Shown here: one piece after another, positions 6,497-48,490 of the stretch | How positions within the stretch are numbered: the stretch's first letter is position 1 | How the letters are laid out: each line of letters starts with the position of its first letter | Assembly: GCA_002421665.1 (NCBI GenBank) | Contig: DISH01000004.1 | Location: forward strand, 87,174 to 151,173 | Length of the DNA stretch: 64,000 nt | Direction of reading: 5' to 3' | DNA from: Candidatus Omnitrophica bacterium UBA6215 | Lineage (GTDB): Bacteria > Omnitrophota > Gorgyraeia > Pluralincolimonadales > Pluralincolimonadaceae | The notes under the pieces: generated by a model | Told to the model about the DNA's origin: nothing | Seen by the model: the letters and a program-made list of their open reading frames with translations, nothing else | Databases searched by the model: none | Position numbers and translations under genes: made by a program

Positions 6497-7875
6497 AATA
6501 CATAGATGAAGCAAGGATCGAGGAGCTTTTAGGCAAAAGCGCCGGTACTTGTGCGGCGCGCGTGGAAGAGATACTCGGGAAGGCCCGGACGCTCAAGCGG
6601 CTCTCGCTTGAGGAGACCGCCGTCCTGCTTGCCGTGGAAGACCCATCGCTAGTAAAAAAGGTCTTTGAGGCGGCCTTGTTCGTCAAGAATGCTATCTACG
6701 GCAACCGCATAGTCCTGTTCGCGCCTCTATATATATCGAACCTTTGCCAGAACCAGTGCCTCTATTGCGCATTCCACGCGGGGAACAAAGAGGTAAAAAG
6801 GAAATACCTGAATACCGAGGAGGTACGAGGCCAGGCAGAGTGGCTTCTCAAGAGAGGCCACAAGCGCCTCCTGCTGGTCGCGGGCGAATCGGGAGTGCCC
6901 GGCAAATCGGCCGTTGATTATTATATCGAATCGGTCGAGGCGGCATATTCCGCGCGTTCAGGGCCCCATTACATAAAGAGGGTAAATATAAACTGCGCGC
7001 CGCTTTCGGTGGAGGATTTCAGAAAATTGAAGGCGTCGCATATCGGGACTTTCCAGCTTTTCCAGGAGACGTACCACGATGCGACTTACAGGAAGTGCCA
7101 TGTCAAGGGGCCCAAGAGCGACCCCGACAACCGCCTCGATGCCATAGACAGGGCTTTCGCGGCCGGTATAGACGACGTGGGCATAGGACCCTTGTACGGA
7201 CTTTACGATTACAAGTTCGAGACGCTCGCGATGATGATGCATATCGAGCACCTCGAAAAGAAATTCAACGTCGGACCGCATACGATATCCGTTCCCAGGA
7301 TAGAACCGGCCGTCGGTTCGGAGCTTTCCATGCGCCCGCCTTACCCGGTATCCGACGACGAGTTCAAAAAACTCGTTGCCGTCATACGCCTGAGCGTTCC
7401 CTATACCGGGATGATACTTACTACCAGGGAGCTGCCGGCTATGCGTGATGAAGTTATCAGGCTGGGTATCTCACAGGTGAGCGCGGAATCCAGGACCTCT
7501 CCGGGCGGTTACGGGGACGACGAAAAATGGGACGCGCAATTCGTCAACAGCGACAGGCGCAGCCTCGACGACATGGTAGGGATGCTGATAAAGAACGGTT
7601 TTGTCCCCAGTTTCTGCGCGGCCTGCTACAGGCGCGAAAGGACAGGAGAGAGTTTCATGAGCCTGGCCAGGCCCGGGCTGATAAAAGGCATGTGCAGCGT
7701 CAACGCCCTTGTGACGCTCAAGGAATACCTCGATGATTTTGCCAGCCCTGCCGTAAAAGCTGACGGATACAAACTTATAGAGAGCGAGACCGCCAAACTC
7801 GATCCCGGTTCAAGGGAACAGGTTTCCAGGCTGTTCTCGGCCATCGATGCAGGAATGAGGGATGAATACGTCTAA
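6493..7875 (+). CDS. hydG: [FeFe]-hydrogenase maturase HydG (radical SAM tyrosine lyase)
   Basis: Radical-SAM motif CQNQCLYCAF. The 460-aa length and a C-terminal auxiliary-cluster Cys region (CAACYRRERTGESF...MCSVN) are typical of HydG. The ATGA overlap with hydF indicates translational coupling. Confidence 0.85.
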   Translation: MKYIDEARIEELLGKSAGTCAARVEEILGKARTLKRLSLEETAVLLAVEDPSLVKKVFEAALFVKNAIYGNRIVLFAPLYISNLCQNQCLYCAFHAGNKEVKRKYLNTEEVRGQAEWLLKRGHKRLLLVAGESGVPGKSAVDYYIESVEAAYSARSGPHYIKRVNINCAPLSVEDFRKLKASHIGTFQLFQETYHDATYRKCHVKGPKSDPDNRLDAIDRAFAAGIDDVGIGPLYGLYDYKFETLAMMMHIEHLEKKFNVGPHTISVPRIEPAVGSELSMRPPYPVSDDEFKKLVAVIRLSVPYTGMILTTRELPAMRDEVIRLGISQVSAESRTSPGGYGDDEKWDAQFVNSDRRSLDDMVGMLIKNGFVPSFCAACYRRERTGESFMSLARPGLIKGMCSVNALVTLKEYLDDFASPAVKADGYKLIESETAKLDPGSREQVSRLFSAIDAGMRDEYV

Positions 7876-8839
7876 AAACCTCGATTATTTCGAGAAGATA
7901 CTTTCATTGGAAGGGGAAGAGGCCCGTAAGCTCTACGACCGCGCCGATGAAGTCCGCAGGCGCTATGCCGGGGACAAGATACTCCTGCGGGGGCTTGTCG
8001 AATTCTCTAACCATTGTGCAAGGTATTGCTATTACTGCGGCCTGAATACGGCCAATGCCTCCCTGGAAAGGTACCGCCTTACGCGCGAAGAGATACTCGA
8101 GAGCGCGGCAAGGATAGCTGCCGATAACATCAAGACGATAGTCCTGCAATCAGGCGAGGACCCGGCTCTGGACCCTGCCTGGCTTGCGGAGATAATAAAA
8201 GAGATCAAGTCCCGCCATAATATGGCCGTGACGCTATCTGCAGGTGAAAGGCCGCGGGCCGATTATGGATTGTGGAGGAGATCCGGTGCTGACAGGTATC
8301 TGCTTAAGATAGAGACATCCGATAAGAAGCTTTACGACTCACTGCATAAGGGTATGAGTTTCGAGAACCGACTGCGCTGCCTGCAGGACATAAAGGACCT
8401 CGGGTATGAGGCGGGTTCGGGCATAATGGTAGGGTTGCCCGGGCAGACGTTGCGAAATATCGCGGAGGATATCTTGTTTTTCAAAGAGTGGAAATTTGAC
8501 ATGATAGGCATAGGGCCGTTCATCCCGCATGAAAAGACCGAGTTGGCCGGCAAGCCTGCCGGCGGCGTTGAGATGGTATTGAAGACGCTCGCGCTTACGC
8601 GAATAGTTATGGGGAGGGTCAACCTGCCTGCCACGACCTCTCTTGGGAGCATGGATAAGGATTACAGGATAGAGGGGCTTAAAGCCGGTGCGAACGTTCT
8701 TATGCCTAATTACACCCCAGATAAATACAAGGTATTATACGAGATCTATCCTAATAAGAGGTGTATAAGCGAATCTGCAGGAACCTGCGCGCCATGTATG
8801 GCATCGCTTGCCGCGTCGATAGGCAGGTTAGTCGCGTGA
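7862..8839 (+). CDS. hydE: [FeFe]-hydrogenase maturase HydE (radical SAM, biotin-synthase-like)
   Basis: Radical-SAM motif CARYCYYCG. The 325-aa BioB-like length and its position after hydG support HydE. Confidence 0.85.
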   Translation: MNTSKNLDYFEKILSLEGEEARKLYDRADEVRRRYAGDKILLRGLVEFSNHCARYCYYCGLNTANASLERYRLTREEILESAARIAADNIKTIVLQSGEDPALDPAWLAEIIKEIKSRHNMAVTLSAGERPRADYGLWRRSGADRYLLKIETSDKKLYDSLHKGMSFENRLRCLQDIKDLGYEAGSGIMVGLPGQTLRNIAEDILFFKEWKFDMIGIGPFIPHEKTELAGKPAGGVEMVLKTLALTRIVMGRVNLPATTSLGSMDKDYRIEGLKAGANVLMPNYTPDKYKVLYEIYPNKRCISESAGTCAPCMASLAASIGRLVA

Positions 8840-9364
8840 TCTTTTGAAACCGAGCAGGCCTATAAGTCCGGTGCCGAAAAGGAGGAGGGAGACGGGTTCC
8901 GGGACGGCCGCCACTTCGAAAGTAGCCGTATCCCCGCCGGTCAATATGATATTCGGCGTTATCCCGTTCAAAGTATATATAGTATAACCGCCGTACACTT
9001 TCCAGTCGCCGGGCTGTTTTAAGACATCCCAGCCGTCAAGTTTTACCCAGGTGTTCTGAAAACCGTTTGGATAAAATTCCTGGTCGAATCCCTCCACGTC
9101 TTCGAACGTTTCTTCTCCGTTATCAATGTGGAACCATGCGGCCGAAACGGACAACTTCGGGTACATGCCCTGGGCCCCGCTGAAACCCGGGACATTGATA
9201 TACAACCACGGGGTCTCATCATATCCGAAAACGGTTTTCTCGATAGTACTGCCCGATGATCCCACGGTCTTAACGCTGAAATCGGCGTGCGCGTCTGTTA
9301 AAAACGTTTCGAACGCCAGGAATAAAAAAAGGAAAATAATAAATTTATACGACTTTCTTGGCAT
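8828..9364 (-). CDS. Secreted PEP-CTERM sorting-domain protein
   Basis: N-terminal signal peptide MPRKSYKFIIFLFLFLAFE. The C-terminus is VPEPVSLLLFGTGLIGLLGFKRSRD: a PEP motif, a TM helix and a basic tail. It is convergent with hydE and overlaps its end by 12 nt. Confidence 0.85.
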   Translation of the reverse strand: MPRKSYKFIIFLFLFLAFETFLTDAHADFSVKTVGSSGSTIEKTVFGYDETPWLYINVPGFSGAQGMYPKLSVSAAWFHIDNGEETFEDVEGFDQEFYPNGFQNTWVKLDGWDVLKQPGDWKVYGGYTIYTLNGITPNIILTGGDTATFEVAAVPEPVSLLLFGTGLIGLLGFKRSRD

Positions 9365-9465: not shown

Positions 9466-9494
9466 TTGACAAACGGCCGGTTTAGTCCTATAAT
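9466..9494 (+). promoter_or_regulatory. Consensus sigma70-type promoter (TTGACA-17-TATAAT) upstream of the membrane-complex operon
   Basis: Exact TTGACA at 9466-9471, a 17-nt spacer, and exact TATAAT at 9489-9494. This is about 24 nt upstream of the ATG at 9518. Confidence 0.65.
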
Positions 9495-9517
9495 ATCAAC
9501 AATCAAAATAAAATAAA

Positions 9518-11305
9518 ATGCAACTTGCCGGGAATTTCGGTGATCTAAGTGGGGACTATTTGTCCCTGTTTTTTCTTTTTACGATACTGCTTATATCTGT
9601 GCCTGCGGCTGTCTATTCCACGGGCTACATGATGGGGGAGTACGGCGGTAAAAAGAAGGCCGTACTATGGGCATTATTAGCCGCGTTCGTATCATCTATG
9701 GCGCTTGTGGTCCTTACGGCCAATGCATTTGTCTTCCTGGTGGCTTGGGAGCTGATGTCGCTCCTTTCGTATTTCCTCGTTGTCTCCGATTTCAAGCATG
9801 AAAAGTCCGTAAAGGCCGGGACCATCTATATCGTCATGACGCATATCGGCACGGCGTTCATGACAGCCGCTTTCCTGGTGATGTTCAGATACTCAGGATC
9901 ATTCGATTTCTCCGCTTTGAAAGAAGCCTGTTCCACGATGCCCCCCGAGATCAAGAATATCGTCTTCCTTATGTTGCTTGCCGGTTTTGGGACGAAAGCC
10001 GGGCTGGTGCCTTTGCATATATGGCTGCCATACGCGCATCCCCAGGCGCCGAGCCACATATCAAGTATAATGTCAGCTGTCATGATAAAGACCGCCGTCT
10101 ACGGCATGCTCAGGTTCGTATTCATGATATTGGGCATAGGTGCGATCTGGTGGGGCAACCTCGTGCTTGTCCTGGCGCTTGTCTCATGCCTTGCCGGCAT
10201 AATGTACGCGCTTACCGAAAATGACCTTAAGCGCCTCCTGGCTTATTCGAGCGTCGAGAATATCGGTATCATCATGCTCGGAGTGGGCGCGTCTATGGTC
10301 TTTATGAAGATGGGCCTGCCTGCCGTCTCGCTCCTGGCGCTTTGCGCGGGGCTTTTCCACCTGATCAATCATGCTGTGTTCAAGGGGCTGCTTTTCCTAT
10401 GCGCCGGATCAATTTATAAGGCAACCGGGACACGCAATATTGAGCACCTCGGCGGGCTTATCAAGAAGATGCCTGTTACCGCAGCGGCTTTCCTTGCCGG
10501 TTCGATAGCCATATCGGGCCTGCCGCCTTTTAACGGTTTCGTCAGCGAGTGGCTCACCCTGCAGGCGTTGTTCACGGGCGCGGTAAATACCGGCGGAAGC
10601 TACAAGATCTTCCTTTGCGTGTGCGCGGCGCTGCTTGCGCTTACCGGAGGGCTTGCGGCCGCGTGTTTTGTCAAAGCGTTCGGTGTCACTTTTCTGGCCG
10701 TACCCAGGAGCAGGGCAGCCGAAAGGGCGGGGGAAGTCCCGCTTTCAATGAAAGCCCCTATGGTGTTCCTTGCTGCGGCAGCCGTGCTCCTCGGCGTCGG
10801 CGCGCCCTCAGCAATAAGATGTATTTCGGCGGTTGCCGATTCGGTGATAGCCGCGCCTGCCGGGGGTATAACGCTTTCAGCTTCCTTGAATACGGTAATT
10901 ATCGCCTCTGCGATATTCACCGCATCCGCGGCGGCCTTTTATTTTATGAGGCCGAGAAGGACAACCGAATGCAATACCTGGGATTGCGGATATTACAAGC
11001 TGGGAGCGCGCACCGAATACAGCGCGACGGCATTTTCCAAGCCTCTGCGCATAGCTTTCGGTTTCTTCCTGTTGCCTTACAGCAAGACAGAAAAGATAAG
11101 GGATTCTTTCTATCATGTCCGGTCTTTTAAATACGAGGTCTTTACTACGCCCGTCTTCAGGGATTATGTTTATGAGCCGGCGGTAAAATTGGTCTTCATG
11201 GCGGCGCGCCAGGTCAAGAAGATACAACCCGGCAGTATCCATGTCTATGTGGCATATATTTTTGCGACCATAGTGCTCCTGGTCATATTTATGGGAAGGT
11301 TCTGA
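9518..11305 (+). CDS. NuoL/MrpA-like antiporter subunit of membrane-bound hydrogenase-type complex (HyfB-like)
   Basis: A 595-aa polytopic protein. The motif GTKAGLVPLHIWLPYAHPQAPSHISSIMSAVMIKTAVYGMLRF is typical of the NuoL/HyfB family. Confidence 0.85.
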   Translation: MQLAGNFGDLSGDYLSLFFLFTILLISVPAAVYSTGYMMGEYGGKKKAVLWALLAAFVSSMALVVLTANAFVFLVAWELMSLLSYFLVVSDFKHEKSVKAGTIYIVMTHIGTAFMTAAFLVMFRYSGSFDFSALKEACSTMPPEIKNIVFLMLLAGFGTKAGLVPLHIWLPYAHPQAPSHISSIMSAVMIKTAVYGMLRFVFMILGIGAIWWGNLVLVLALVSCLAGIMYALTENDLKRLLAYSSVENIGIIMLGVGASMVFMKMGLPAVSLLALCAGLFHLINHAVFKGLLFLCAGSIYKATGTRNIEHLGGLIKKMPVTAAAFLAGSIAISGLPPFNGFVSEWLTLQALFTGAVNTGGSYKIFLCVCAALLALTGGLAAACFVKAFGVTFLAVPRSRAAERAGEVPLSMKAPMVFLAAAAVLLGVGAPSAIRCISAVADSVIAAPAGGITLSASLNTVIIASAIFTASAAAFYFMRPRRTTECNTWDCGYYKLGARTEYSATAFSKPLRIAFGFFLLPYSKTEKIRDSFYHVRSFKYEVFTTPVFRDYVYEPAVKLVFMAARQVKKIQPGSIHVYVAYIFATIVLLVIFMGRF

Positions 11306-12180
11306 TGAAATACTTATTGGTGGCGCTGCAAATAGTCGTGCTTATCGCGGTTTCGCCGTTCATAACCGGTCTCATAAAGAAGATTAAGAATTTTATCAGG
11401 CTAAGGAAAGGTCCCGGTGTCTTCCAGCCGTACTACGACCTGGCCAAACTGGCCGGGAAGGAAGAGGTCATCTCCCGTGATACGTCGTGGATATTCGCTT
11501 TTGCGCCTTACGCGGTCATCGGGTCCGTAACGGCGGCTTTGCTGCTTGTCCCCGCGTTCGGGCCGGGGATATCGCTTAACCGCGCCGGCGACCTGATCGC
11601 CATGATATTCATCCTGGCGTTCGGGCGGTTCTTTATGGCCCTTGCCGGCCTTGATGCAGGCAGCGCGTTCGGCGGTATGGGATCATCTAGGGAGATGTTC
11701 ATCTCAAGCCTTGTAGAGCCGGTGGCGCTGCTTTCCGTTTTTGCCGTATCTCTTAACTGCGGCTCGACCGACGCGCAGGCGGTCGCCTCGTACGGGACAT
11801 TCAGGTTCTCCACGCTGGTCGCCACGGGCGCGCTCTTCGCGGTCACTATAGCCGAAACCTCCCGCATACCGGTGGATAACAGAGAGACGCACCTCGAATT
11901 GACTATGATACACGAAGCGATGGTCCTTGAATATTCGGGGCGTTCGCTGGCCCTGATAGAGCTTGCCTCGCATATAAAACAGGTATTGTTCTTTTCCGTG
12001 ATCGCGGCGGTAGCGGTGCCGTTCGGGAATTACGCGGTCAAGATGCTCGTTATCGCGGCTGCCGTGGCCGCACTCGAGGTCTCGATGGCCAAGATGCGGT
12101 TGTTCAGGGTGGTGGATATGATGAGTTTCTCTTTCGTGCTTTCCGTAATAGCGGTGGTCATCTCCGCGATGGGGTACTGA
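11305..12180 (+). CDS. NuoH-like membrane subunit (HyfC/HycD-like)
   Basis: A 291-aa polytopic protein with a NuoH/HycD-like sequence. It is translationally coupled to the upstream gene. Confidence 0.75.
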   Translation: MKYLLVALQIVVLIAVSPFITGLIKKIKNFIRLRKGPGVFQPYYDLAKLAGKEEVISRDTSWIFAFAPYAVIGSVTAALLLVPAFGPGISLNRAGDLIAMIFILAFGRFFMALAGLDAGSAFGGMGSSREMFISSLVEPVALLSVFAVSLNCGSTDAQAVASYGTFRFSTLVATGALFAVTIAETSRIPVDNRETHLELTMIHEAMVLEYSGRSLALIELASHIKQVLFFSVIAAVAVPFGNYAVKMLVIAAAVAALEVSMAKMRLFRVVDMMSFSFVLSVIAVVISAMGY

Positions 12181-12181
12181 T

Positions 12182-12820
12182 ATGGCAGTCGGGCTTATAC
12201 TTTTCGGGATACTGGTGATGGCGTTCGCGATGGTCGCCGCCAAGCGGCTTTCCGCGCTGATATTCGGGTTCAGGGCGCAGTCTTTTTTCCTGTTCATGCT
12301 TACTTTTATACTTGCCTGGAGGGAGAACTCCACCCAGCTCTATATTGTCACTACCATGTTGTTTGCGGTGAAAGTGGTACTTGTGCCGAACTTCCTTCAG
12401 AAGGTTGCGCGCAGGATCAAAGCCGATGAAGACCTCGGGCTTTCGGTCAACCCGACGGTATCCATGTCGGCCGCGGTGTTGTTGTCGTATATGGCCTACC
12501 TGTTTACAGGCAAGATAGTATCCATCCCGGGAGAGTTCGAGAACAGCGCGTTGTTCATTTCGCTTTCGGCCACGATGATAGGGACTTTCCTTATGATAAC
12601 CAGGATGAAGGCGCTTGCCCAGATACTTGGCTTGCTTGTAATGGAGAACGGGATATTCCTTGCCGCTGCGAGCGTATCCGGCGGAATGCCGTTCATAGTA
12701 GAGATCGCGATATTCTTCGATATCCTGCTGGTGGTTATCATACTCGGGATATTCGTGTTCAAGATAAACAGGCTTTTCACGCATATAGATGTCGACAAAC
12801 TTACGGAATTGAAGGGATGA
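12182..12820 (+). CDS. Hydrogenase-4 component E-like small membrane subunit (HyfE-like)
   Basis: A 212-aa multi-TM protein. The length and hydrophobic profile match HyfE, and it sits between the NuoH-like and NuoN-like genes. Confidence 0.6.
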   Translation: MAVGLILFGILVMAFAMVAAKRLSALIFGFRAQSFFLFMLTFILAWRENSTQLYIVTTMLFAVKVVLVPNFLQKVARRIKADEDLGLSVNPTVSMSAAVLLSYMAYLFTGKIVSIPGEFENSALFISLSATMIGTFLMITRMKALAQILGLLVMENGIFLAAASVSGGMPFIVEIAIFFDILLVVIILGIFVFKINRLFTHIDVDKLTELKG

Positions 12821-12821
12821 T

Positions 12822-14282
12822 ATGCAGATATTCGCGATATTACTGATACCGCTGGCGCTTTCGGGGATCGCTGTCCTTCCGGGAAAGACCAGGAGCTTCG
12901 GAGTATTTAACGCCGCAGGGCATTTCATTAATGCCGTCCTTGCAGTATGGCTGTCGCTCGACCTTCTCAGGACGCGCGAGGCCGCGGCGTATCTCGGTTT
13001 CTTCTATGCCGACCTGCTGAGCGCGTTTTTTATATTGACGATATCCGTCATCAATTTCATCGCGGCGCTCTATTCTATAGGCTATATATCCTCGGATGTC
13101 AGGGACAGTACTATGAGCGAGAGGAAGGCAAAGGCGTATTATGCGCTCTTCAACCTGTTCACTCTTACGATGCTTAGCGTTCCGGTTGTAAGTAACCTCG
13201 GCATGGTCTGGGTCGCCATAGAGATGACGACCCTTGTCTCCGCGTTCCTGGTCGGATTCTATAACAGGAAAGAGTCCATAGAGGCGGCATGGAAATACAT
13301 AATAATCTGTTCGGTAGGCATTACCCTGGCTCTCTTTGGCACGATCCTGTTCTATTACACGGCTTCTCGCGACGGCGGAGTCTCAAGCCTGAACTGGACA
13401 GACATGGCGGCGGTAGCCGGCGATCTCAACCCGTCAATACTTAAAGTGGCTTTCCTTTTCATAGTTGTGGGTTACGGCACGAAAGCCGGGTTCGTCCCCA
13501 TGCATACGTGGCTTCCGGATGCCCACAGCCAGGCCCTGGCGCCGATAAGTGCGCTGCTTTCCGGGGTATTGCTTCCTACGGCGGTCTACGCGATAATAAG
13601 GTTTGCGACGGTCATCAATATCTGTATAGGCACTTCATACACGGGAAACCTATTTATGTTCTTCGGACTCATGTCGCTGGGCATCTCCGCGGGGCTCGTG
13701 CTTGTACAGAGGGACATCAAGCGGCTCCTTGCCTATAGCAGCGTAGAGAATATCGGGATAATATCGATCGGCCTGGGTTTCGGGGGGACATTCGCGATTG
13801 CAGGTGCTCTGTTCCATGTCTTCAACCATGCCGCGGCGAAATCGCTTATGTTCTTTGCCGCCGGCCGCGCCGTAAAAAAATATAATTCACACAGTATAAG
13901 GGACATTCGCGGAATGATAAGCGCGATGCCGTTCGCCGGCACTATGCTTATAGTCGGGGCATTCGCGCTGACCGGAATGCCGCCGTTCTCGGCTTTCTTC
14001 AGCGAGATAATGATAATAATATCCGGTTTCACCGGAGGGTTCCTGTTCCAGTCGTCGCTGCTGCTGTTTTTCATGGCCGTCGTCTTCTGTGCCATGATAC
14101 ATAATATAAGCAGGTCGGTCTTCGGGGAGAAACCGTCGGGTATGGCCGCGGAAGGCGAGCCGTTAAGCGGTAAACTCGCTTTCGGCATCCTGATGCTCAT
14201 AATTTGTACTGCGGGCATCGTAGCGCCGGGATTCTTCAAGGAACTATTGACTGCCGCTTCGGAAATAATCAGGGGTGCATGA
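12822..14282 (+). CDS. NuoN/NuoM-like antiporter subunit (HyfF-like)
   Basis: A 486-aa protein with the proton-pumping family motif GTKAGFVPMHTWLPDAHSQALAPISALLSGVLL. Confidence 0.8.
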   Translation: MQIFAILLIPLALSGIAVLPGKTRSFGVFNAAGHFINAVLAVWLSLDLLRTREAAAYLGFFYADLLSAFFILTISVINFIAALYSIGYISSDVRDSTMSERKAKAYYALFNLFTLTMLSVPVVSNLGMVWVAIEMTTLVSAFLVGFYNRKESIEAAWKYIIICSVGITLALFGTILFYYTASRDGGVSSLNWTDMAAVAGDLNPSILKVAFLFIVVGYGTKAGFVPMHTWLPDAHSQALAPISALLSGVLLPTAVYAIIRFATVINICIGTSYTGNLFMFFGLMSLGISAGLVLVQRDIKRLLAYSSVENIGIISIGLGFGGTFAIAGALFHVFNHAAAKSLMFFAAGRAVKKYNSHSIRDIRGMISAMPFAGTMLIVGAFALTGMPPFSAFFSEIMIIISGFTGGFLFQSSLLLFFMAVVFCAMIHNISRSVFGEKPSGMAAEGEPLSGKLAFGILMLIICTAGIVAPGFFKELLTAASEIIRGA

Positions 14283-15808
14283 TGGACATTAACAGGGAAA
14301 CATATATAGAAGCGGCCCCGGAGCGGTTTGCGGCGGAGTGCCTAAGACTGCACAAGCGGCTCGATTCCGCCGTCATGACGTATTTTGCCGAGGACCTCAG
14401 GAAAGAACTCGGCATATTCCGCCTGTATTGCGTGTTCCTGGATAAAGAGAAAAAGGCCTGGACGGTCGTAAGGACAGGCCTCCCCGGCGCGGATGCAAGG
14501 ATGACATCGCTTTCGAAAGAGATGTTCTCCGCCGGCCTTTTCGAGCGCGAGATGGGGGAGATGTTCGGCATAAAATTCGAGGAAAGCCCCGATACCAGGC
14601 GTTTGTCGCTCCACGACGAGGTTTGGCCAAAGGGATATTACCCCCTGAGAAAGGATTTTTCGCCTGATGATGCCGCAAGAGCGGCCCCGGAAGGCGATTA
14701 CTGTTTCAACAGGGTCGACGGGGAGGGCATATTCGAAGTGCCGGTCGGGCCTGTGCATGCCGGTATTATCGGTCCGGGGCATTTCAGGTTCAGCGCGGCG
14801 GGTGAGCCTGTCATAAATCTCGAAACGCGGCTTGGGTTCACCCACCGCGGCGTCGAGAAACTGTTCGAGACGATGGATGCGGACAATGCCGTATCATTCT
14901 CGGAAAAGGTCTCCGGAGATTCGGCGTTCTCTTACAGTTGCGCGTTCTGCCGCGGCATAGAGAGTATATACGGCCTCGAGGTCCCGTTGAGGGCAAGTAT
15001 AATAAGGGCCATATTCATCGAACTTGAGAGGATGTATAACCACGCAAACGATATAGGCGGGATGGCCGTCGATGTAGGGTTCGGCTATCCCAATGCCCTT
15101 GCCTCGACGGTCAAAGAAGACTTGCTCGCGCTTAACAGGATGTTGACCGGCAGCAGGTACCTTAAAGGTGTTAACAGGATCGGCGGCGTAAACGCGGATA
15201 TCTCCGGGGAAATGAAACCGCTCCTTTTGGATTCGGTCTTGCGGGCGCGGGAGATCATGAACGAATTGAACGGCATATTGCATTCGAGTGTTTCGTTCAT
15301 GGACCGCGTTGACGGCACGGGGATATTGAAAAAGAAGACTGCGGCAGACCTCGGCGTGACCGGGCTCGCGGCCCGCGCGTCCGGGATCCGCTGCGATCTA
15401 AGGGAGATATTTGACGGGCAGGTATACGGCGCTTGCAGATTCAAACCTGCCGTTCAGGAGGAAGGCGATGTCCTGGCGAGGCTTAACGTGCGCTTTGATG
15501 AATTCGAGGCCAGCGTCGGAATGATAAATAAAATGGCGGAAATGCTGGATAAGGCGGGCAAATCCGGTTTGAAGGCGGAATATATCCCGAAAGCCGGAGC
15601 GGCTATCGGTTCCATTGAGGCATGGAGGGGGCCCGTCATTATATGGGTCAGGACCGATCCGTCCGGCCGTATTGAAAGGTGCAAGATAACAGACCCGTCA
15701 TTCAAGAACTGGCAGGGCCTTTGTTTCTCCGTCCTTGGTAATATCATCCCGGATTTCCCGTTATGCAACAAGAGCTTCGACCTTTCATACCCGGGTAATG
15801 ACCTATGA
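14279..15808 (+). CDS. Fused NuoC/NuoD-like large subunit (HycE/HyfG-like) with a degenerate NiFe-binding site
   Basis: N-terminal NuoC-like domain and C-terminal NuoD/NiFe-large-subunit-like domain. Only an N-terminal CxxC is retained (SCAFCRG), without the following His. The C-terminal DPCxxCxxR motif is replaced by ITDPSFKNWQ. The ATG at 14279 is preceded by AGGGG and overlaps the upstream stop. Confidence 0.75.
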   Translation: MMDINRETYIEAAPERFAAECLRLHKRLDSAVMTYFAEDLRKELGIFRLYCVFLDKEKKAWTVVRTGLPGADARMTSLSKEMFSAGLFEREMGEMFGIKFEESPDTRRLSLHDEVWPKGYYPLRKDFSPDDAARAAPEGDYCFNRVDGEGIFEVPVGPVHAGIIGPGHFRFSAAGEPVINLETRLGFTHRGVEKLFETMDADNAVSFSEKVSGDSAFSYSCAFCRGIESIYGLEVPLRASIIRAIFIELERMYNHANDIGGMAVDVGFGYPNALASTVKEDLLALNRMLTGSRYLKGVNRIGGVNADISGEMKPLLLDSVLRAREIMNELNGILHSSVSFMDRVDGTGILKKKTAADLGVTGLAARASGIRCDLREIFDGQVYGACRFKPAVQEEGDVLARLNVRFDEFEASVGMINKMAEMLDKAGKSGLKAEYIPKAGAAIGSIEAWRGPVIIWVRTDPSGRIERCKITDPSFKNWQGLCFSVLGNIIPDFPLCNKSFDLSYPGNDL

Positions 15809-16317
15809 ACAACATATTAAAGAGCAGGTTAAAGAGGGGAATATTGACGAGGCGTATAGATGCCGGCGGGCCGGTTCCTCCGGAACTGGAAACCCTTGGC
15901 GCCGAGATGAGAGAAAGGATAAAGAAGAGGTTCGGAAGGTCGTTCCATATCAGGCAGGTCGATACCGGCTCCTGCGGCGCGTGTGTGTCCGAGATAATCG
16001 CCGCGACGAACCCTATCTATGACCTGCAGCGCTTTGGTGTGGATTTTGTCGCGTCTCCGCGCCACGCGGACGCGCTACTGGTTACCGGCCCGGTCTCGAA
16101 GAACATGGCTGCCGCTTTGCGCAAAACCTATGACGCGGCGCCTGAGCCCAAGATAGTCATATCGGCGGGTGATTGCGCCCTCGACGGCGGCGCGTTCAAA
16201 GGTTCATATTATACCGCAGGAGGGGTCCGGCAGGTCCTTCCGGTGGATCTTCACATCCCGGGATGCCCTCCTTCGCCCGAAGAGATCATAAAAGCGCTCC
16301 TTGCATTGCTAAAATAA
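15805..16317 (+). CDS. NuoB-like small subunit (HycG/HyfI-like) with intact [4Fe-4S] ligands
   Basis: Four cluster-ligating Cys are present: SCGAC..., AGDCALDGG and IPGCPP. The CxxC-type first motif is hydrogenase-like rather than the complex-I CC type. Confidence 0.8.
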   Translation: MNNILKSRLKRGILTRRIDAGGPVPPELETLGAEMRERIKKRFGRSFHIRQVDTGSCGACVSEIIAATNPIYDLQRFGVDFVASPRHADALLVTGPVSKNMAAALRKTYDAAPEPKIVISAGDCALDGGAFKGSYYTAGGVRQVLPVDLHIPGCPPSPEEIIKALLALLK

Positions 16318-16369
16318 TAGTTTACATTTACGGCTTTTGAGGGATAATAACCTAAAAAGGAGGTATGCT

Positions 16370-16720
16370 ATGGCCATAATAGGGATAATAGCTCTCTTAT
16401 GGATGAGCCTTTTACTTGCGGTAAGCTATTTTGTCTTTCTTACGGCAGAAAAGGCGCCTGAGGGCGTAAAAGGATACGGAAAGCTTATCGGCGTTGTGCT
16501 GGTCGCGACAGCGCTGGTCATAGCGATAAGCGGCATAACGCTGCTTATCACGAACACCAACCCTCTTTGCGGCCCGAATTCGGCCTGCCCCATGATGCGC
16601 GGTATGTCCGGCGGCATGAAAGACATGGGAATGGGCGGAAAGATGGGCAAGGCGGGCAGGGGATCCGGCCCGGGTCCATGCGGTACTATGGCGAATCCTG
16701 CTCGCGGCAATCTCCAGTAA
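16370..16720 (+). CDS. Small two-TM membrane protein with C-terminal Met/Gly-rich tail
   Basis: The RBS AAAGGAGG lies 7 nt upstream of the ATG at 16370. It has two hydrophobic helices, then CGPNSACPMMRGMSGGMKDMGMGGKMGKAGRGSGPGPCG. It is the last gene before the operon terminator. Confidence 0.5.
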   Translation: MAIIGIIALLWMSLLLAVSYFVFLTAEKAPEGVKGYGKLIGVVLVATALVIAISGITLLITNTNPLCGPNSACPMMRGMSGGMKDMGMGGKMGKAGRGSGPGPCGTMANPARGNLQ

Positions 16721-16726
16721 TATCCG

Positions 16727-16768
16727 AGAGGGCGGTAAAAGCACGATTTACCGCCCTCTTTTTTATTT
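16727..16768 (+). terminator. Rho-independent terminator ending the membrane-complex operon
   Basis: Perfect 12-bp stem AGAGGGCGGTAA / TTACCGCCCTCT followed by TTTTTTATTT. Confidence 0.8.
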
Positions 16769-16825: not shown

Positions 16826-16854
16826 TTGACAATCTGAAAAGTATGATTTATCAT
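16826..16854 (+). promoter_or_regulatory. sigma70-type promoter (TTGACA-17-TATCAT) upstream of the AbrB-like gene
   Basis: TTGACA at 16826-16831, a 17-nt spacer and TATCAT at 16849-16854. A GGAGG RBS lies 5 nt upstream of the ATG at 16881. Confidence 0.55.
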
Positions 16855-16880
16855 ATATATCATACAATTCGGAGGTAAAG

Positions 16881-17120
16881 ATGAAGGAAAACGCGATAGA
16901 AGGTCCGGCGGGGGATTTCCATAGCGTCGTGACGATAGGCGAGAGGGGGCAGGTCGTAATACCGGCCGATATACGCAAGATGCGCAATATCAAGTCCGGC
17001 GACAAGCTCATCGTCGTCTCCAAGCGAGGAGGGCCTATCGGCCTTATCCCGGCGCAGGAATTCAACCGTTTCCTGACGGAAGCAACAAGGGTAATGTCAA
17101 AATTAAAGAGCCAGATCTGA
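16881..17120 (+). CDS. AbrB/MazE/SpoVT-family DNA-binding protein (transcription regulator or orphan antitoxin)
   Basis: A 79-aa protein. The motif VVTIGERGQVVIPADIRKM matches the swapped-hairpin AbrB N-domain. Confidence 0.6.
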   Translation: MKENAIEGPAGDFHSVVTIGERGQVVIPADIRKMRNIKSGDKLIVVSKRGGPIGLIPAQEFNRFLTEATRVMSKLKSQI

Positions 17121-17123
17121 AAA

Positions 17124-18443
17124 TTGAAGAATAGAGCACCGTTACTTATGATTTTCGCTTCGCTGGCGCTTGTATGCGCTTGCGCTCAAGCGGAAGAGAC
17201 GCTTACATGGGAGGATTGCGTCCGCGAGGCCGCGAAGAACAACCCTGCGCTCATCTCCTCTAAAGAATCCGTAAAGAGCACGGAAGCCGCCAAGTCGATA
17301 ACCGCCAGCGGGCTTTTCCCGCAGGTGTCCGCAAGCGCGGGAGTTGCCAAATCCAAGACGGAGACTTCAGGCTCATCGGGCGGGGACGGGAATAACGGGG
17401 GCGGCGGCTCGTCAAATGACAGCTCCGTCAATAATTATAATTACGGCGTAAGCGGGAACCAACTTATTTTCGACGGCTTCAAGACCGCGAACCAGGTGAA
17501 CGCCGCTTCCGAAGATATAAAGGCAGCGCAGGAAAACTATAAGTTTACTTCTTCGGACGTGAGGTTGAGCCTGCGTACCGCGTTCATCGAATTGCTTAAA
17601 GCGCAGGAGGGCCTGCGCATAAAGGAAGAGATATACGAGCGCCGCAGGCAGAACTTCGAACTCGTCACACTGCGTTACGAGTCAGGCCAGGAGAATAAAG
17701 GTTCCCTGCTGACCGAACAGGCCAACCTTATCCAGGCGCGTTTTGATGTCACCCAGGCGGGGAGAGATATAGACCTTTCCCGGCGCAAACTTTCCAAGGA
17801 GATGGGGCGTTCCGATACCTCCGAGATCACCGCAAAAGGCGATTTTAAGGTAGCAGAAGAGGTGCGCGAGATGCCGGATTTTTCCGTAATAGCGCAGGAT
17901 AACCCGTCTTTGAAACAGCTTATCGCGCAGAAGAATTCCGCTATATTCAACCTGAAGTCTGCCAGGGCGGAATTTATGCCGGAGGTTACCGCCAGCGGCA
18001 GCGCGGGACGTTCCGATACGAACTGGCCTCCGGAAAACAACAACTGGTCTATAGGCGCATCGGTCTCGCTGCCCATATTCGAGGGCGGCAAAAGGCTGGC
18101 GGATGTAAAAAAGGCGACAGCCCAGTTGAATAAGGCAGAAGCCGACCTGACCGACGGGTTGAACAGCGTGGTAGAGACCTTACAGGACAGATGGACATCC
18201 CTGCAGCAGGCGCTCGATAACGTTTCCGTCCAGAAAGAGTTCCTTACCGCCAACGAAGAGCGCGCTAAGATAACCGAGGCGCAATATTCGATAGGTTTTG
18301 TTTCGTTCAATGACTGGATAATAATAGAGAACAACCTCGTCGACGCAAAGAACTCGTACTTAGAGGCGCAGGCCAACGCGCTCGTCGCGGAGGCTAACTG
18401 GATACAGGCAAAGGGAGAGACAATAGAAAATGTCGAAAAATAA
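17124..18443 (+). CDS. TolC-family outer-membrane efflux channel
   Basis: Signal peptide, two OEP repeats, 439 aa. It has a Gly/Ser-rich low-complexity insert (SGSSGGDGNNGGGGSSNDSS). It lies upstream of macAB. Confidence 0.75.
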   Translation: MKNRAPLLMIFASLALVCACAQAEETLTWEDCVREAAKNNPALISSKESVKSTEAAKSITASGLFPQVSASAGVAKSKTETSGSSGGDGNNGGGGSSNDSSVNNYNYGVSGNQLIFDGFKTANQVNAASEDIKAAQENYKFTSSDVRLSLRTAFIELLKAQEGLRIKEEIYERRRQNFELVTLRYESGQENKGSLLTEQANLIQARFDVTQAGRDIDLSRRKLSKEMGRSDTSEITAKGDFKVAEEVREMPDFSVIAQDNPSLKQLIAQKNSAIFNLKSARAEFMPEVTASGSAGRSDTNWPPENNNWSIGASVSLPIFEGGKRLADVKKATAQLNKAEADLTDGLNSVVETLQDRWTSLQQALDNVSVQKEFLTANEERAKITEAQYSIGFVSFNDWIIIENNLVDAKNSYLEAQANALVAEANWIQAKGETIENVEK

Positions 18444-19410
18444 AAGCAAAATATTCTTGATCACGGCGGTCATAATAGGGATAGCCGCTTTCTTTATACT
18501 TAGACCTAAGAAGAGCGCCACTACCGAAGAAGCCGCGAAAGAGGTGAAGCCGCAGGCAGGGACGATCGAGACATACATCTCCACTACCGGTACCGTCCTG
18601 CCGCAGAACAGGCTTGAGATAATGCCGACGGTCGCCGGACGCGTAGAGCAGATACTCGCGAAGGAAGGCGAAAAGGTGAAGTCAGGCCAGATACTCGGAT
18701 GGATGAGTTCCACCGAGCGCGCCGCGCTGCTCGATGCGGCAAAAGGCAAGGGAGAAGAGGTCTTAAAATATTGGGAAGACGCTTATAAGCCCATACCGCT
18801 CCTGGCGCCGATAGACGGCGAGGTCATAGTATCTACTATACAGCCCGGCCAGACGGTAACTACCAGCGACGCCGTTTTTGTCCTGTCGGACAGGCTGATA
18901 GTGCGCGCTCAGGTTGACGAAACCGATATAGGCAAGGTCAAGCTCGGTCAGGAGGCCATGATAAGCCTCGACGCCTATCCGGACGCTAAGGTCAGCGCTG
19001 TCGTAGGCCATATATATTATGAATCCGAGACCGTGAACAACGTCACCATATATAAGGTAGATATGATACCCACGGTCGTCCCGTCGTTCTTCCGTTCGGG
19101 CATGAACGCCAATGTGGATTTCATTGAGCAGAGTAAGGCGAACATCCTGACCCTGCCGCTCGACGCCGTAAGGACCGATAAGGACGGTTCGTACGTCTTC
19201 ATCAACCAGGGCCCGGGTAAACCGCCGGCACGCCGCGCGGTAACGACCGGCCTGGCCGATGAAAAGAACATAGAGATAATCTCGGGAGTCACCGCGGACG
19301 ACACCGTGGAGATAAGGTCCGGGAAGTTCGTTCTCCCGATGAGCGCTTCCACGGGCTCTAACCCGTTCATGCCTCAAAGAAAAAATGATAGAAATAAGGA
19401 AAATAAGTAA
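18430..19410 (+). CDS. macA: Periplasmic adaptor (HlyD/MacA family membrane fusion protein)
   Basis: N-terminal TM anchor and biotinyl-lipoyl-like and beta-barrel MFP domains. It overlaps tolC and macB. Confidence 0.75.
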   Translation: MSKNKSKIFLITAVIIGIAAFFILRPKKSATTEEAAKEVKPQAGTIETYISTTGTVLPQNRLEIMPTVAGRVEQILAKEGEKVKSGQILGWMSSTERAALLDAAKGKGEEVLKYWEDAYKPIPLLAPIDGEVIVSTIQPGQTVTTSDAVFVLSDRLIVRAQVDETDIGKVKLGQEAMISLDAYPDAKVSAVVGHIYYESETVNNVTIYKVDMIPTVVPSFFRSGMNANVDFIEQSKANILTLPLDAVRTDKDGSYVFINQGPGKPPARRAVTTGLADEKNIEIISGVTADDTVEIRSGKFVLPMSASTGSNPFMPQRKNDRNKENK

Positions 19411-21355
19411 AACATACGCCAAAGGCGAAGCTGAGGTCCGCGCTCTCCGCGAAGTCTCGATCAAAATAGAGGCGGGGGAGTTCGTCGCGATAATGGGCGC
19501 TTCCGGATCGGGCAAGTCCACCCTTATGCACCTTATGGGCCTGCTCGACAGGCCGGATTCCGGGTCCTATATGCTGGGCGGGAAAGATGTCACAGGGCTC
19601 TCCGACGACGAACTTGCCGCCACGCGCAACCGCCTGATAGGTTTCGTATTCCAGCAGTTCCATCTCCTGCCAAGGATGACCGCGCTCGAGAACGTTGAAC
19701 TGCCGCTTATCTATGCCGGCAACCGCCACCTCAAAGACAAAGCATTCGACAAACTCAAGGACGTCGGGCTGGAGAGCCGCACGCGCCACCGGCCGAACGA
19801 AATGTCGGGCGGTCAGCAGCAGCGCGTGGCCGTTGCCAGGGCGTTGGTCAATGACCCGCTCATAATAATGGCTGACGAGCCTACCGGCAACCTCGATTCC
19901 AAGAGCAAGGAAGAGATAATGGCGATCCTCAAGCAGCTCAACGAACAGGGCAAGACGCTCATCATAGTCACACATGAGGACGAGATCTCCCGCTACGCCA
20001 GGAGGGTCATCCGCATGCGCGACGGCGAGATAATTTCCGACGAGCTCAACCGCGCGGAACGGACAGACCGCAAACCCGCGGCGGACGCTAAGCCGGCCGA
20101 TGAAACCCTTAACAAAGCGGAGAAGTTCTCGCGGCGCGCGGAGTTCGTCGACTACATGAGGCAGGCTCTCAGCGCCATGGCGACTCACAAGCTGCGTACT
20201 TTCCTTTCGGTGCTCGGCATACTTATCGGTGTCGCGGCGGTCGTGGCTATGCTCGCGATAGGCCAGGGCGCGCAGGAGACCATATCCAAGCAGTTGTCAT
20301 CGCTCGGCTCGAACCTGCTGCTCATTATGCCTGGGTCTACGCGCCTGCACGGCGTGGCGACGGGTACCGGCGCTTTCACGAGGTTCACCTTCGAGGATAT
20401 CGACGCGATAAAAAAATTGTCCGATGAAGTCAGCCGTGTGTCGGCATCGGTCCAGGGCAAGGGGCAGGTGGTCTACGGGAACAAGAACTGGAATACCACT
20501 GTTGACGGCCAGGGCCTGGATTATCCCGAGATGCGCGCGTCCGTGCCGGACATCGGCAGGTATTTTAACGAGAAGGAGATGAGGTCCAGGGAGAAGGTGG
20601 CGGTCATCGGCAGGACGGTCGTGCGGGAACTTTTCGGCGACGAAAATCCCGTCGGCAAGAATATCAAGATCAACCTGTTGAATTTTAAGGTCATCGGCAT
20701 ATTGCCGGAGAAAGGCGCTTCCGGCTGGCGCGACCAGGACGACACGATAGTCATCCCGGTAACCACCGCGATGTACCGCGTCTTCGGCAAGGATTATATA
20801 GATACCATATCGGTCGAGGTCAAGGAAGCCGGACAGATCGAACAGGCGCAGGAAGATATCAGGAAACTTATAATTAAGCAGCACAGGCTTACCACCAAGG
20901 ACCAGCAGGATTCTTTCCAGATAAGGGATATGTCCGAGTTCAAGAATATGCTCACCTCGACGACGAAGACCATGTCGCTGCTCCTCGGTTCCATCGCGGC
21001 CATATCGCTGCTCGTAGGCGGTATCGGCATCATGAACATCATGCTCGTCTCTGTTACGGAACGCACCCGCGAGATAGGCCTGCGTAAGGCAATAGGGGCG
21101 CGTAATGTGGATATAATGATCCAGTTCCTTATAGAAGCCGCGCTTATAGCTTTCATCGGCGGGATAGCAGGCGTCGTCCTCGGCGCGGGCATATCTTCGC
21201 TGATCGCCGCCGTCGCGGGATGGGCGGTCAAACTTTCCGCTTTCTCCGTAGCTCTCGCGACGGGTTTCTCGCTCGCGATAGGCGTATTGTTTGGAAGCTG
21301 GCCCGCGCACCAGGCCTCCCAGCTCAACCCCATCGAAGCGCTCAGATATGAATAA
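19385..21355 (+). CDS. macB: MacB-type ABC transporter (fused ATPase plus FtsX-like permease)
   Basis: Walker A GASGSGKST, signature LSGGQQQRVAVARAL, Walker B IIMADEP, and a C-terminal four-TM FtsX domain. It is 656 aa. Confidence 0.85.
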   Translation: MIEIRKISKTYAKGEAEVRALREVSIKIEAGEFVAIMGASGSGKSTLMHLMGLLDRPDSGSYMLGGKDVTGLSDDELAATRNRLIGFVFQQFHLLPRMTALENVELPLIYAGNRHLKDKAFDKLKDVGLESRTRHRPNEMSGGQQQRVAVARALVNDPLIIMADEPTGNLDSKSKEEIMAILKQLNEQGKTLIIVTHEDEISRYARRVIRMRDGEIISDELNRAERTDRKPAADAKPADETLNKAEKFSRRAEFVDYMRQALSAMATHKLRTFLSVLGILIGVAAVVAMLAIGQGAQETISKQLSSLGSNLLLIMPGSTRLHGVATGTGAFTRFTFEDIDAIKKLSDEVSRVSASVQGKGQVVYGNKNWNTTVDGQGLDYPEMRASVPDIGRYFNEKEMRSREKVAVIGRTVVRELFGDENPVGKNIKINLLNFKVIGILPEKGASGWRDQDDTIVIPVTTAMYRVFGKDYIDTISVEVKEAGQIEQAQEDIRKLIIKQHRLTTKDQQDSFQIRDMSEFKNMLTSTTKTMSLLLGSIAAISLLVGGIGIMNIMLVSVTERTREIGLRKAIGARNVDIMIQFLIEAALIAFIGGIAGVVLGAGISSLIAAVAGWAVKLSAFSVALATGFSLAIGVLFGSWPAHQASQLNPIEALRYE

Positions 21356-42836: not shown

Positions 42837-42837
42837 T

Positions 42838-43944: not shown

Positions 43945-44843
43945 AAAAGGATCTTCCGTTAATAAGTGTTATTATGCCTGCCTATAATGCGGAAGAAACA
44001 ATTGAGAAGGCAATATTATCGTTACTAAATTTAAACTATCCAAAAGAAAGAATCGAATTATTAATCGTAGATAATAATTCTAGCGATTCTACTGTAGATA
44101 TAATTGGCAAATATCCGGTGACATTGCTTCAAGAATGCGAAAAACAAAGTTCCTACGCAGCAAGAAATTTAGGTGTTAAAGTTGCAAAAGGAGAGATATA
44201 TGCTTTTACAGATGCTGACTGTATTGTTGATGTAAATTGGGTTATGATGGGTATCGAAGCTTTACAGAAAGCCGATTTAGTCGGAGGCAAAGTTGAATTT
44301 ATATATTCTGAGAAAAAAACGTCATCAGAAATGTATGATTCGCTAATTAGTATGGATAACGAGTTGTATATATTGAGCTCTAAGGGAGCTACAACGGCCA
44401 ACTTATTTGTTAAATCCAGTATTTTTTCTAAAATTGGTTTATTTGACGATACTGTCGTTTCTGGTGGAGACATGGAGTGGACGATAAGAGCTAGCAACTC
44501 AGGATATAAAATAGAATATTCCAACGCTGTTATAATAAGGCATCCGTCCAGAAAGTTTAAAGATTTGATGGCCAAAGGTTTTAGAGTTGGGACGGGATTT
44601 ATTAACATATGGCGTAAAAGCGGTCTATCGAGTAAACAGATATTAAGTAATATTTTTAGATTGTGCATACCGACGAGGCCCTATTATATAAGGAAGATGG
44701 TAAAAAGGCGCGGGACAACAGATATGTACAATAAAATAGCTCAGGTATGGTTAGTAGCATATTTGAGCAAATTGTCCCGAATCACAGGGATATTATTTTC
44801 ACTTGTTTCCAGAAGGAATAAAAATTGTTTGGGCCTAAAATGA
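43941..44843 (+). CDS. Family 2 glycosyltransferase (low-GC cassette)
   Basis: LISVIMPAYNAEETIEKAILSLLNLNYPKERIELLIVDNNSSDST. DAD motif (FTDADC). Confidence 0.8.
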   Translation: MKKDLPLISVIMPAYNAEETIEKAILSLLNLNYPKERIELLIVDNNSSDSTVDIIGKYPVTLLQECEKQSSYAARNLGVKVAKGEIYAFTDADCIVDVNWVMMGIEALQKADLVGGKVEFIYSEKKTSSEMYDSLISMDNELYILSSKGATTANLFVKSSIFSKIGLFDDTVVSGGDMEWTIRASNSGYKIEYSNAVIIRHPSRKFKDLMAKGFRVGTGFINIWRKSGLSSKQILSNIFRLCIPTRPYYIRKMVKRRGTTDMYNKIAQVWLVAYLSKLSRITGILFSLVSRRNKNCLGLK

Positions 44844-46228: not shown

Positions 46229-46237
46229 TAGGTCATA

Positions 46238-48488: not shown

Positions 48489-48490
48489 AT

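Follow-up and report, generated by a model that had tools for sequence, protein, structure and literature searches.

An ehrABCDLS operon with one additional membrane-protein gene in an Omnitrophota-affiliated bacterium: an Ehr complex whose large subunit has lost the nickel-iron ligands

Is a six-gene operon whose products resemble both group 4 nickel-iron ([NiFe]) hydrogenases and respiratory complex I a hydrogenase, a minimal complex I, or neither of these? The question is raised by a transcription unit at positions 9466-16768 (+ strand) of a 64,000-nucleotide stretch from Candidatus Omnitrophica bacterium UBA6215 (assembly GCA_002421665.1, contig DISH01000004.1, positions 87,174 to 151,173 of the forward strand), the whole of which is referred to here as the window. 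The operon very probably encodes an energy-converting hydrogenase-related (Ehr) complex that is no hydrogenase and is kept under selection. It is the canonical ehrABCDLS operon of an Omnitrophota-affiliated bacterium, plus one lineage-specific gene for a small membrane protein. An initial annotation of this DNA, made from the letters alone, had proposed an Ehr-type complex, and this identification holds, as the gene order equals that of the published ehrABCDLS and the large subunit is without the NiFe cysteines. Judged from sequence comparison, the complex is an ordinary member of an already-described family, a degenerate hydrogenase and no half-way stage to complex I.

Ehr is widespread, the family received its name some twenty years ago, and the literature found on it reports no tested function; its function was still given as unknown in 2026 (PMC13194489). 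The cluster name ehrABCDLS has been used in a paper reporting Ehr in Methylacidiphilum (PMC6688271), and Ehr has also been reported in Nitrospira (PMC10284858) and Margulisbacteria (PMC6349859). For the Geobacter complex GSU0739-45, EhrA is described as NuoL-like and EhrC as HyfE-like, alongside EhrL and EhrS (PMC7894505). The G. sulfurreducens complex (GSU0739-0745) goes back to Coppi (2005) and Marreiros et al. (2013), as cited in later papers, and Ehr has been reported in M. tuberculosis too. According to the Desulfotomaculum ruminis genome paper, most Ehr complexes are without the cysteines, and the EhrL of that organism keeps them (PMC3569383). The related group 4f complex has been called uncharacterised (bioRxiv 10.1101/2025.08.29.672306). 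The present instance adds no function to this picture, only modest comparative detail.

The operon and its closest relatives

The unit consists of a promoter, a series of tightly packed genes and a terminator. The sigma-70-type promoter at 9466-9494 (+), with TTGACA and TATAAT 17 nt apart, matches the consensus at 12 of 12 positions and is the top-scoring site of the region, and the intrinsic terminator at 16726-16760 (+) has a 14-bp stem with seven G-C pairs, followed by a T-run to 16768. These two elements bear out the earlier description of one unit running from a consensus promoter to a terminator. The ATG of ehrA at 9518 follows an A-rich leader without a Shine-Dalgarno sequence. All six ehr open reading frames (ORFs) lie on one strand (+), and neighbours overlap or sit one base apart.

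The first of them, ehrA (9518-11305), encodes a HyfB/NuoL-like antiporter-type subunit of 595 residues (PF00361, E = 2.8e-59; NCBIfam HyfB, 618 bits), and is followed by ehrB (11305-12180) for a HyfC/HycD/NuoH-like subunit of 291 residues (PF00146, E = 1.9e-36). The 212-residue product of ehrC (12182-12820) is HyfE-like with a NuoK-like C-terminal half (NCBIfam HyfE, E = 6.4e-28; a weak PF00420 match at residues 123-212), and that of ehrD (12822-14282) is a HyfF/NuoN-like antiporter-type subunit of 486 residues (NCBIfam HyfF, 473 bits). A fusion of NuoC with a NuoD/large-subunit part that is without NiFe ligands, 509 residues long, is encoded by ehrL (14279-15808; PF00329 and PF00346), and a NuoB/HycG-like small subunit of 170 residues by ehrS (15805-16317; PF01058, E = 1.6e-30). 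The Pfam and NCBIfam assignments thus agree with the NuoL-, NuoH-, HyfE-, NuoN-, fused NuoCD- and NuoB-like genes recognised in the initial annotation. Their order is that of E. coli hyfB-C-E-F-G-I and of the published ehrABCDLS, with NuoL-, NuoH-, HyfE- and NuoN-like subunits preceding the large and small ones. Further likenesses to Ehr are the cysteine-less large subunit, the [4Fe-4S] small subunit and the want of a separate NuoI-type subunit.

Among solved structures, the E. coli formate hydrogenlyase complex FHL-1 (Hyc; PDB 7z0s) provides the top relatives of EhrL, EhrS and EhrB, the three subunits searched. Hyf proteins are 31-43% identical to the ehr proteins subunit by subunit and always score above their Nuo counterparts (202 vs 115 bits for EhrL, 372 vs 120 for EhrA, 134 vs 31 for EhrB). 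In contrast to Hyf and FHL, the operon has no equivalents of HyfA, HyfD, HyfH or HyfJ, no formate dehydrogenase and no NiFe site, and EhrL is without the C-terminal extension for protease processing. That no formate dehydrogenase accompanies the operon had been noted before, and none was found alongside it here.

MBS/Mbx provides a precedent: this group 4 descendant has lost its NiFe ligands and nevertheless pumps ions, driven by redox chemistry that is catalysed at the proximal cluster. The Pyrococcus furiosus complex (PDB 6u8y) is more distant from the window proteins than Hyc, with MbsL scoring 95 bits vs 201 for HycE and MbsJ 69 vs 128 for HycG; moreover, MBS has a NuoI-like subunit (MbsN) and Mrp-type subunits, whereas the window complex is without either. 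Complex I shares the homologous core of NuoB, C, D and H and the antiporter-like subunits, with conserved charged residues in the membrane arm, but its N-module, NuoI, NuoA and NuoJ are missing in the window operon, and a NuoK-like part is present only as the HyfE-type subunit.

The former NiFe site and the lost ferredoxin relay

The motifs of EhrL were placed by phmmer alignment to solved structures (HycE, MbhL and Nqo4) and by a second alignment of 150 representatives, the best ones in a library that had been clustered at 50% identity. HycE is the closest solved relative (7z0s_E, E = 2.6e-58), followed by MbhL and then Nqo4. The group 4 [NiFe] motifs, RxCGxCxxxH for L1 and DPCxxCxx[HR] for L2, are both absent from EhrL. 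The L1-equivalent position is KVSGDSAFSY (residues 210-219; 14906-14935, +), aligned to RVCGICGFAH of HycE and RMCGICSFSH of MbhL; here both cysteines are replaced by serines, an aspartate stands between the two serines, and the histidine has become a tyrosine. The L2-equivalent position is the C-terminus itself, FDLSYPGNDL (residues 500-509; 15776-15805, +), where DPCYSC of HycE aligns to DLSYPG (501-506). With both motifs placed in this way, all four NiFe cysteines are gone, C1 being replaced by S212, C2 by S215, C3 by S503 and C4 by G506, which rules out that the complex is a [NiFe]-hydrogenase. The placement is echoed in the wider alignment, in which about 25 of the 150 representatives keep the canonical ER[IV]CG[VA]C..SH and NKSFELCY[SA]CxDR; these motifs occupy the same columns as EKVSGDSAFSY and NKSFDLSYPGNDL of the window EhrL. 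The NKSF.LSY core at the L2 position is invariant across the window's clade.

This placement differs from that of the initial annotation, which had taken an N-terminal CxxC (SCAFCRG) for a kept L1 motif and ITDPSFKNWQ for the replacement of L2. The CAFC pair (C221-C224; 14939-14950, +) lies just downstream of the true L1, one residue past that stretch and opposite STAYTTS of HycE. C221 is limited to relatives at least 69% identical and C224 is V, S, T or Q in several homologues, so that CAFC is no functional site; the idea that it is a remnant of the metal site or a new one was rejected, as its conservation fails even inside the clade. ITDPSFKNWQ (residues 470-479) aligns to CRAATYANWP of HycE and VRAPSFVNLQ of Nqo4, a strand upstream of L2 that is conserved in HycE and NuoD, and was likewise discarded as an L2 replacement. 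A proper alignment thus overturns the earlier motif placement while leaving intact the absence of the canonical cysteines. The statement that a NiFe site cannot be assembled is even strengthened, as four ligands are lost and not the C-terminal pair alone; the description of the complex as half-degenerate rested on the misplaced motifs, and the site is fully degenerate. A chance CxxC near the true motif had misled reading by eye, which illustrates that correct alignment is needed to see that the loss is complete.

For EhrL, PF00374 gives 20 bits, under its cutoff of 25.8, and PF00346 gives 128 bits vs a cutoff of 24. The conserved arginine of EAWRG is retained. The beta1-beta2 loop reads HAGIIGPGHF in the window's clade vs HAGIIEPGHF; its glutamate has become glycine in the window, as it has in six of the clade's other eight members, is alanine in representative P0066, and is kept by all relatives outside the clade except one cysteine-less representative, P0195. 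The quinone ligands of complex I are also absent, since in the Nqo4 alignment His38 corresponds to I164 and Tyr87 to G213.

Some cysteine-less subfamilies retain the first L1 cysteine (ICGDS) and/or an L2 cysteine shifted by one position (LSYCGxDL), namely representatives P0209, P0225, P0237, P0238, P0236, P0264, P0204, P0212, P0222 and others. These cysteines may be partial or alternative sites.

EhrS has a single [4Fe-4S] site, formed by C57, C60, C124 and C154, and no ferredoxin domain. Its closest solved relatives are HycG (4e-36) and MbhJ, to which all four cysteines align, and the four are invariant in 13 homologues of 39-92% identity, in line with the NuoB-like subunit with four cluster cysteines reported in the initial annotation. 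The first pair is a hydrogenase-type CxxC that aligns to laCC of NDUFS7; the tandem CC of complex I (CCxxE) is absent. Neither the 64-kb window nor the flanking DNA of eight related loci contains a homologue of NuoI/HyfH, HyfA, NuoA or NuoJ. The sole HyfH match in the scan of the window is weak (23 bits) and falls on the ferredoxin domain of a NuoF-like HydB ORF (5-1708), and the operon is indeed without a NuoI/HycF ferredoxin subunit, as first annotated.

The history of this relay can be followed among the relatives. Two NiFe-retaining loci, L012 from 'Ca. Wujingus' (Planctomycetota) and L013 from Desulfotomaculum sp., have the same six-gene order as the window and a small subunit that a fused ferredoxin domain (2x[4Fe-4S]) at the N-terminus extends to 240-263 residues. 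NiFe-retaining six-gene relatives of this kind (group 4f 'Ehf' type; Desru_3260-3265; L012 and L013) are 37-40% identical to EhrL in the large subunit and share with it the PDFPL[IC]NKSF context around L2. L012 and L013 keep L1 as R[IV]CG[VA]C..H, L2 as ELCY[SA]CxDR, the loop glutamate and the Fer4-fused small subunit, all of which are lost in the window. In the acidobacterial Ehr loci L002 and L003 the large subunit is cysteine-less and the ferredoxin domain is still present. The genes for small subunits with a fused NuoI-like 2x[4Fe-4S] domain lie at 12080-12871 in L012, 11597-12319 in L013 and 3310-4227 in L003; the insert of about 85-110 residues is absent in the window and in eight other Ehr loci, and the deletion is clean, with conserved segments on both sides. 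The 2x[4Fe-4S] relay of group 4 enzymes, whether as a NuoI/HycF/HyfH-type subunit or as a fused domain, is thus missing from the window. Comparison of these sequences indicates that the complex descends from six-gene hydrogenases of the Hyf-like (group 4f) type in which Fer4 was fused to the small subunit, the relay having been excised here, as in most Ehr. A NuoI-like relay that was once fused to the small subunit and has been cleanly deleted in most of the Ehr loci examined leaves one cluster, and this constrains the possible mechanisms.

Selection, mechanism and rival explanations

The membrane arm retains the features of its Hyf relatives. EhrA, 38% identical to E. coli HyfB, keeps the glutamate of transmembrane segment (TM) 5, the lysines of TM7 and TM8, the TM11 histidine pair and the TM12 glutamate, like HyfB, and is without the first approximately 75 residues (TM1-2) found in HyfB, NuoL and other Ehr clades. 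The short N-terminus was considered as the product of a frameshift or of faulty annotation, and this was rejected, as there is an in-frame stop upstream and the whole clade has EhrA proteins of 585-613 residues. The closest solved relative of EhrB is HycD (7z0s_D, E = 2.9e-35), and the NuoH/HycD signature E..RIP.D..E...EL...EYSG is retained, as are both membrane glutamates of HyfE in EhrC (MENG and VEIA). EhrD, 43% identical to HyfF, keeps the TM5 glutamate, the TM7 lysine, the TM11 histidine pair and the TM12 glutamate, like HyfF; the TM8 position is proline in EhrD and asparagine in HyfF. In Hyf/Hyc and complex I, protons or cations are moved by such charged residues, which EhrA, EhrB, EhrC and EhrD have kept.

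Several thousand clusters make up the closest homologues, with identities of 55-69%, and most of them come from metagenome-assembled genomes of Candidatus Omnitrophota, and cysteine-less relatives occur in Omnitrophota, Acidobacteriota, Binatia, Persephonella (Aquificota), Acidimicrobiales (Actinomycetota), Longimicrobiales (Gemmatimonadota) and Margulisiibacteriota. Nine related loci (L001, L004/L005, L006-L009, L014, L016 and L017) have the identical six-gene order with otherwise unrelated flanks, and no neighbour of the NuoI, formate dehydrogenase or NuoEF type is common to the related loci. In a neighbour-joining tree, rooted on NuoCD by assumption and without support values, the NiFe-retaining enzymes form a basal grade beside HyfG and the cysteine-less ones a single derived clade, inside which the window's clade is nested. 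Compared with the 90%-identical locus L001, the ratio of nonsynonymous to synonymous substitution rates (dN/dS) is 0.035-0.16 over all seven genes and 0.16 for EhrL, values that indicate purifying selection on all seven. Together with the retained residues, they imply that the complex is maintained by selection and is no decaying relic; the pseudogene interpretation was rejected on these values.

How such a complex might work can be outlined as follows. With the relay module missing, the single EhrS cluster would be exposed and might, without an intermediary, trade electrons with a soluble carrier of low potential, for instance ferredoxin, and redox or charge changes at the EhrL/EhrS/EhrB junction would then be coupled to H+ or Na+ translocation via EhrB, EhrC, EhrD and EhrA. 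Operation in the reverse sense is also conceivable, such that translocation would drive the redox changes at this junction. We consider the chances roughly balanced that the EhrS cluster does trade electrons with such a carrier in a manner coupled to translocation of H+ or Na+.

Several points weigh against reading the operon as a selected Ehr complex. Membership is set by architecture, motifs and a Desulfotomaculum relative (L013) similar to Desru_3260-3265 (PMC3569383), and not by the Geobacter GSU0739-0745 sequences; the genome-contig scan with the large subunit as query gave three loci, none of them from Geobacter, and no cluster member for which an organism name was obtained is annotated as a recognised Ehr. 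Beside the operon there is no conserved gene for an electron donor, an electron acceptor or a partner. As the complex has a single cluster and lacks a substrate site that can be recognised, no catalytic cycle can be drawn up, and redox coupling is something that we infer. The negatives for hyp genes and for a ferredoxin subunit span 64 kb only, and such genes are possible elsewhere in the genome. Finally, the nested position of the clade comes from the neighbour-joining tree mentioned above, with its assumed NuoCD root and no support values.

The alternative that deserves most consideration, possible though doubtful, is a redox-independent, Mrp-like cation/proton antiporter for pH or Na+ homeostasis, with EhrL and EhrS as a cap that is structural or serves as a redox sensor or gate. 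It would account for the joint loss of the NiFe ligands, the quinone ligands and the electron-relay domain, for the intact antiporter-type residues and for the lack of a conserved redox partner nearby; a pH-homeostasis role for Ehr has been suggested in genome papers (PMC6688271), and related group 4f genes are acid-induced (bioRxiv 10.1101/2025.08.29.672306). However, the four cluster cysteines are invariant over deep divergence, and the constraint on EhrL, in which the former active site is surrounded by many polar residues that do not vary, seems excessive for a passive cap. It also counts against an Mrp-like role that known Mrp antiporters function without NuoH/B/D-like subunits. Less probable is the proposal that the Omnitrophota-type clade has a distinct, further-reduced seven-gene module that acts as a redox- or metal-gated cation pump or is tied to nitrosative or redox stress. 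This clade does differ from published Ehr in an EhrA about 75 residues shorter at its N-terminus, in the loop glutamate changed to glycine and in the added Met/Cys-rich protein of 116 residues. Under that proposal, the module is marked by the loss of EhrA TM1-2, the loop glutamate and the ferredoxin relay and by the gain of the CPMM membrane protein; equally unlikely is its further element, that the clade-specific Cys468 and Cys496 with the invariant Asp214 make up a new site in the former NiFe pocket. The stress link is suggested because Rrf2 and hybrid-cluster-protein genes recur beside ehr in L004, L017 and L009.

The remaining explanations have still less in their favour. The initial annotation had placed the complex between group 4 hydrogenases and complex I, and a minimal complex-I-like oxidoreductase that passes electrons from ferredoxin or another donor to quinone, as an evolutionary intermediate to complex I, is improbable. 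The fused NuoC/D, NuoB, NuoH and two antiporter-like subunits do form the 'universal adaptor' common to complex I, and Ehr was presented as a missing link by Marreiros et al. (2013), as far as that work is relayed in PMC4758237 and PMC6728331. However, the ligands Nqo4 His38 and Tyr87 align to Ile164 and Gly213, EhrS has the hydrogenase-type CxxC instead of the NuoB tandem CC, NuoA, NuoJ and NuoI homologues are missing from the window, all subunits are nearer to Hyf/Hyc than to Nuo, and the clade is nested among derivatives of NiFe enzymes in the neighbour-joining tree, all of which speaks against an intermediate. That the complex anchors the neighbouring bifurcating [FeFe]-hydrogenase HydABC in the membrane, or pumps ions as its partner, appears very improbable: hydB, hydA, hydF, hydG and hydE lie 0.7-9.5 kb upstream, and this adjacency is repeated in L001, L004/L005 and L017, but an oppositely oriented PEP-CTERM gene separates the two clusters, ehr has its own promoter, and in L006-L009 and L016 ehr has unrelated neighbours, with no hyd genes in the 8-10 kb of flank read. 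The idea that the complex works as a [NiFe]-hydrogenase by means of non-canonical ligands such as the CAFC pair can be practically dismissed. The sub-threshold PF00374 match, the CxxC at 221-224 and the retained EAWRG arginine would be compatible with it, and are outweighed by the replacement of the four canonical ligands, the poor conservation of CAFC within the clade, the glycine in place of the loop glutamate and the absence of hyp genes from the 64-kb window, in which none of about 57 ORFs scanned matched a hyp NiFe-maturation family. An Ehr complex without hydrogenase function thus remains the preferred reading.

This reading has a consequence for genome surveys. Respiratory complex I was scored by PF00346 in a survey of Omnitrophota (PMC10066038), and EhrL passes this profile easily, so that genomes with Ehr only may have been counted as having complex I. 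We infer from the score of EhrL against the cutoff (128 vs 24 bits) that surveys based on PF00346 may more generally count Ehr as complex I and thereby over-call respiration.

The seventh gene and the genomic neighbourhood

The initial annotation missed a seventh ORF inside the promoter-terminator unit. This co-transcribed gene (16370-16720, +) lies between ehrS and the terminator, has a strong Shine-Dalgarno sequence (AAAGGAGG, 6 nt 5' of its ATG) and encodes a 116-residue membrane protein. This protein appears to have two TM segments; its CPMM motif is invariant, and its tail is rich in methionine, glycine and cysteine. No Pfam or NCBIfam family matched it. Its homologues form seven clusters only, and both organism-named ones are from Omnitrophota. 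The small gene adjoins ehr on either side, 3' of ehrS in the window and L001 and 5' of ehrA in L004 and L017; P0306 is probably a third case with the gene downstream. Its dN/dS vs L001 is 0.12, and the protein is probably a lineage-specific accessory component. In L004, an IS200-type Y1 transposase gene (12138-12713) stands 3' of ehrS, the place taken in the window by the gene for the small membrane protein.

Upstream of the operon, the window begins with a NuoF-like hydB (5-1708), which may extend past the window start, followed by hydA for a multi-domain [FeFe]-hydrogenase (1712-3463), a gene for a class-II lyase of the fumarase/aspartase class (3865-5262) between hydA and hydF-hydG-hydE, and hydF, hydG and hydE themselves (5171-8839). 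In its arrangement, hydB-hydA resembles hydrogenases of the electron-bifurcating HydABC type. The PEP-CTERM protein gene (8828-9364, -) is the neighbour of the ehr promoter. The position of the operon immediately downstream of an [FeFe]-hydrogenase and HydEFG is therefore as first annotated; as a wider feature it does not hold, since adjacency is confined to the closest relatives (the window, L001, L004/L005 and L017) and the flanks in L006-L009 and L016 are unrelated. A functional link between ehr and the [FeFe]-hydrogenase was set aside as unsupported, the synteny being lost beyond close relatives.

Directly 5' of ehr, L004 (2662-4738) and L017 (5905-7984) have genes for an Rrf2-family regulator and a hybrid-cluster protein (Prismane), and the same pair is 3' of ehr in the more distant L009 (13671-16740); the window is without such genes. 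Their position next to ehr may reflect a link to nitrosative or redox stress, or chance. As for the sources of these loci, L001 (CAZAEH010000006.1) is labelled 'uncultured Planctomycetia bacterium', and P0006/L004 (GCA_022710515.1) is labelled Candidatus Omnitrophota. The next relatives after L001 share its 20-kb synteny yet carry the Candidatus Omnitrophota label, and one of the two taxonomic labels is probably loose.

Downstream of the terminator, the next transcription unit (16826-21355) has its own promoter at 16826-16854, matching the consensus at 11 of 12 positions, and contains an AbrB/MazE-like gene and TolC-like, HlyD-like and MacB-like efflux genes; the AbrB/MazE-like protein has 79 residues (16881-17120). 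In L004 an AbrB/MazE-like gene and a TolC/HlyD/MacB-like set also come after ehr. Further on, positions 22680-58360 are taken up by an exopolysaccharide biosynthesis cluster of about 35 kb (Wzz, Wzy, flippases and sugar transferases), and an exosortase EpsH gene and an EpsI-like (DUF3485) gene occur downstream (55845-57367, -). Inside the polysaccharide cluster, at 42000-50000, is a low-GC island (31% vs about 54%) with genes for GT2 and GT4 glycosyltransferases, a Wzy-like polymerase and a WecG/TagA-type transferase, which looks horizontally acquired.

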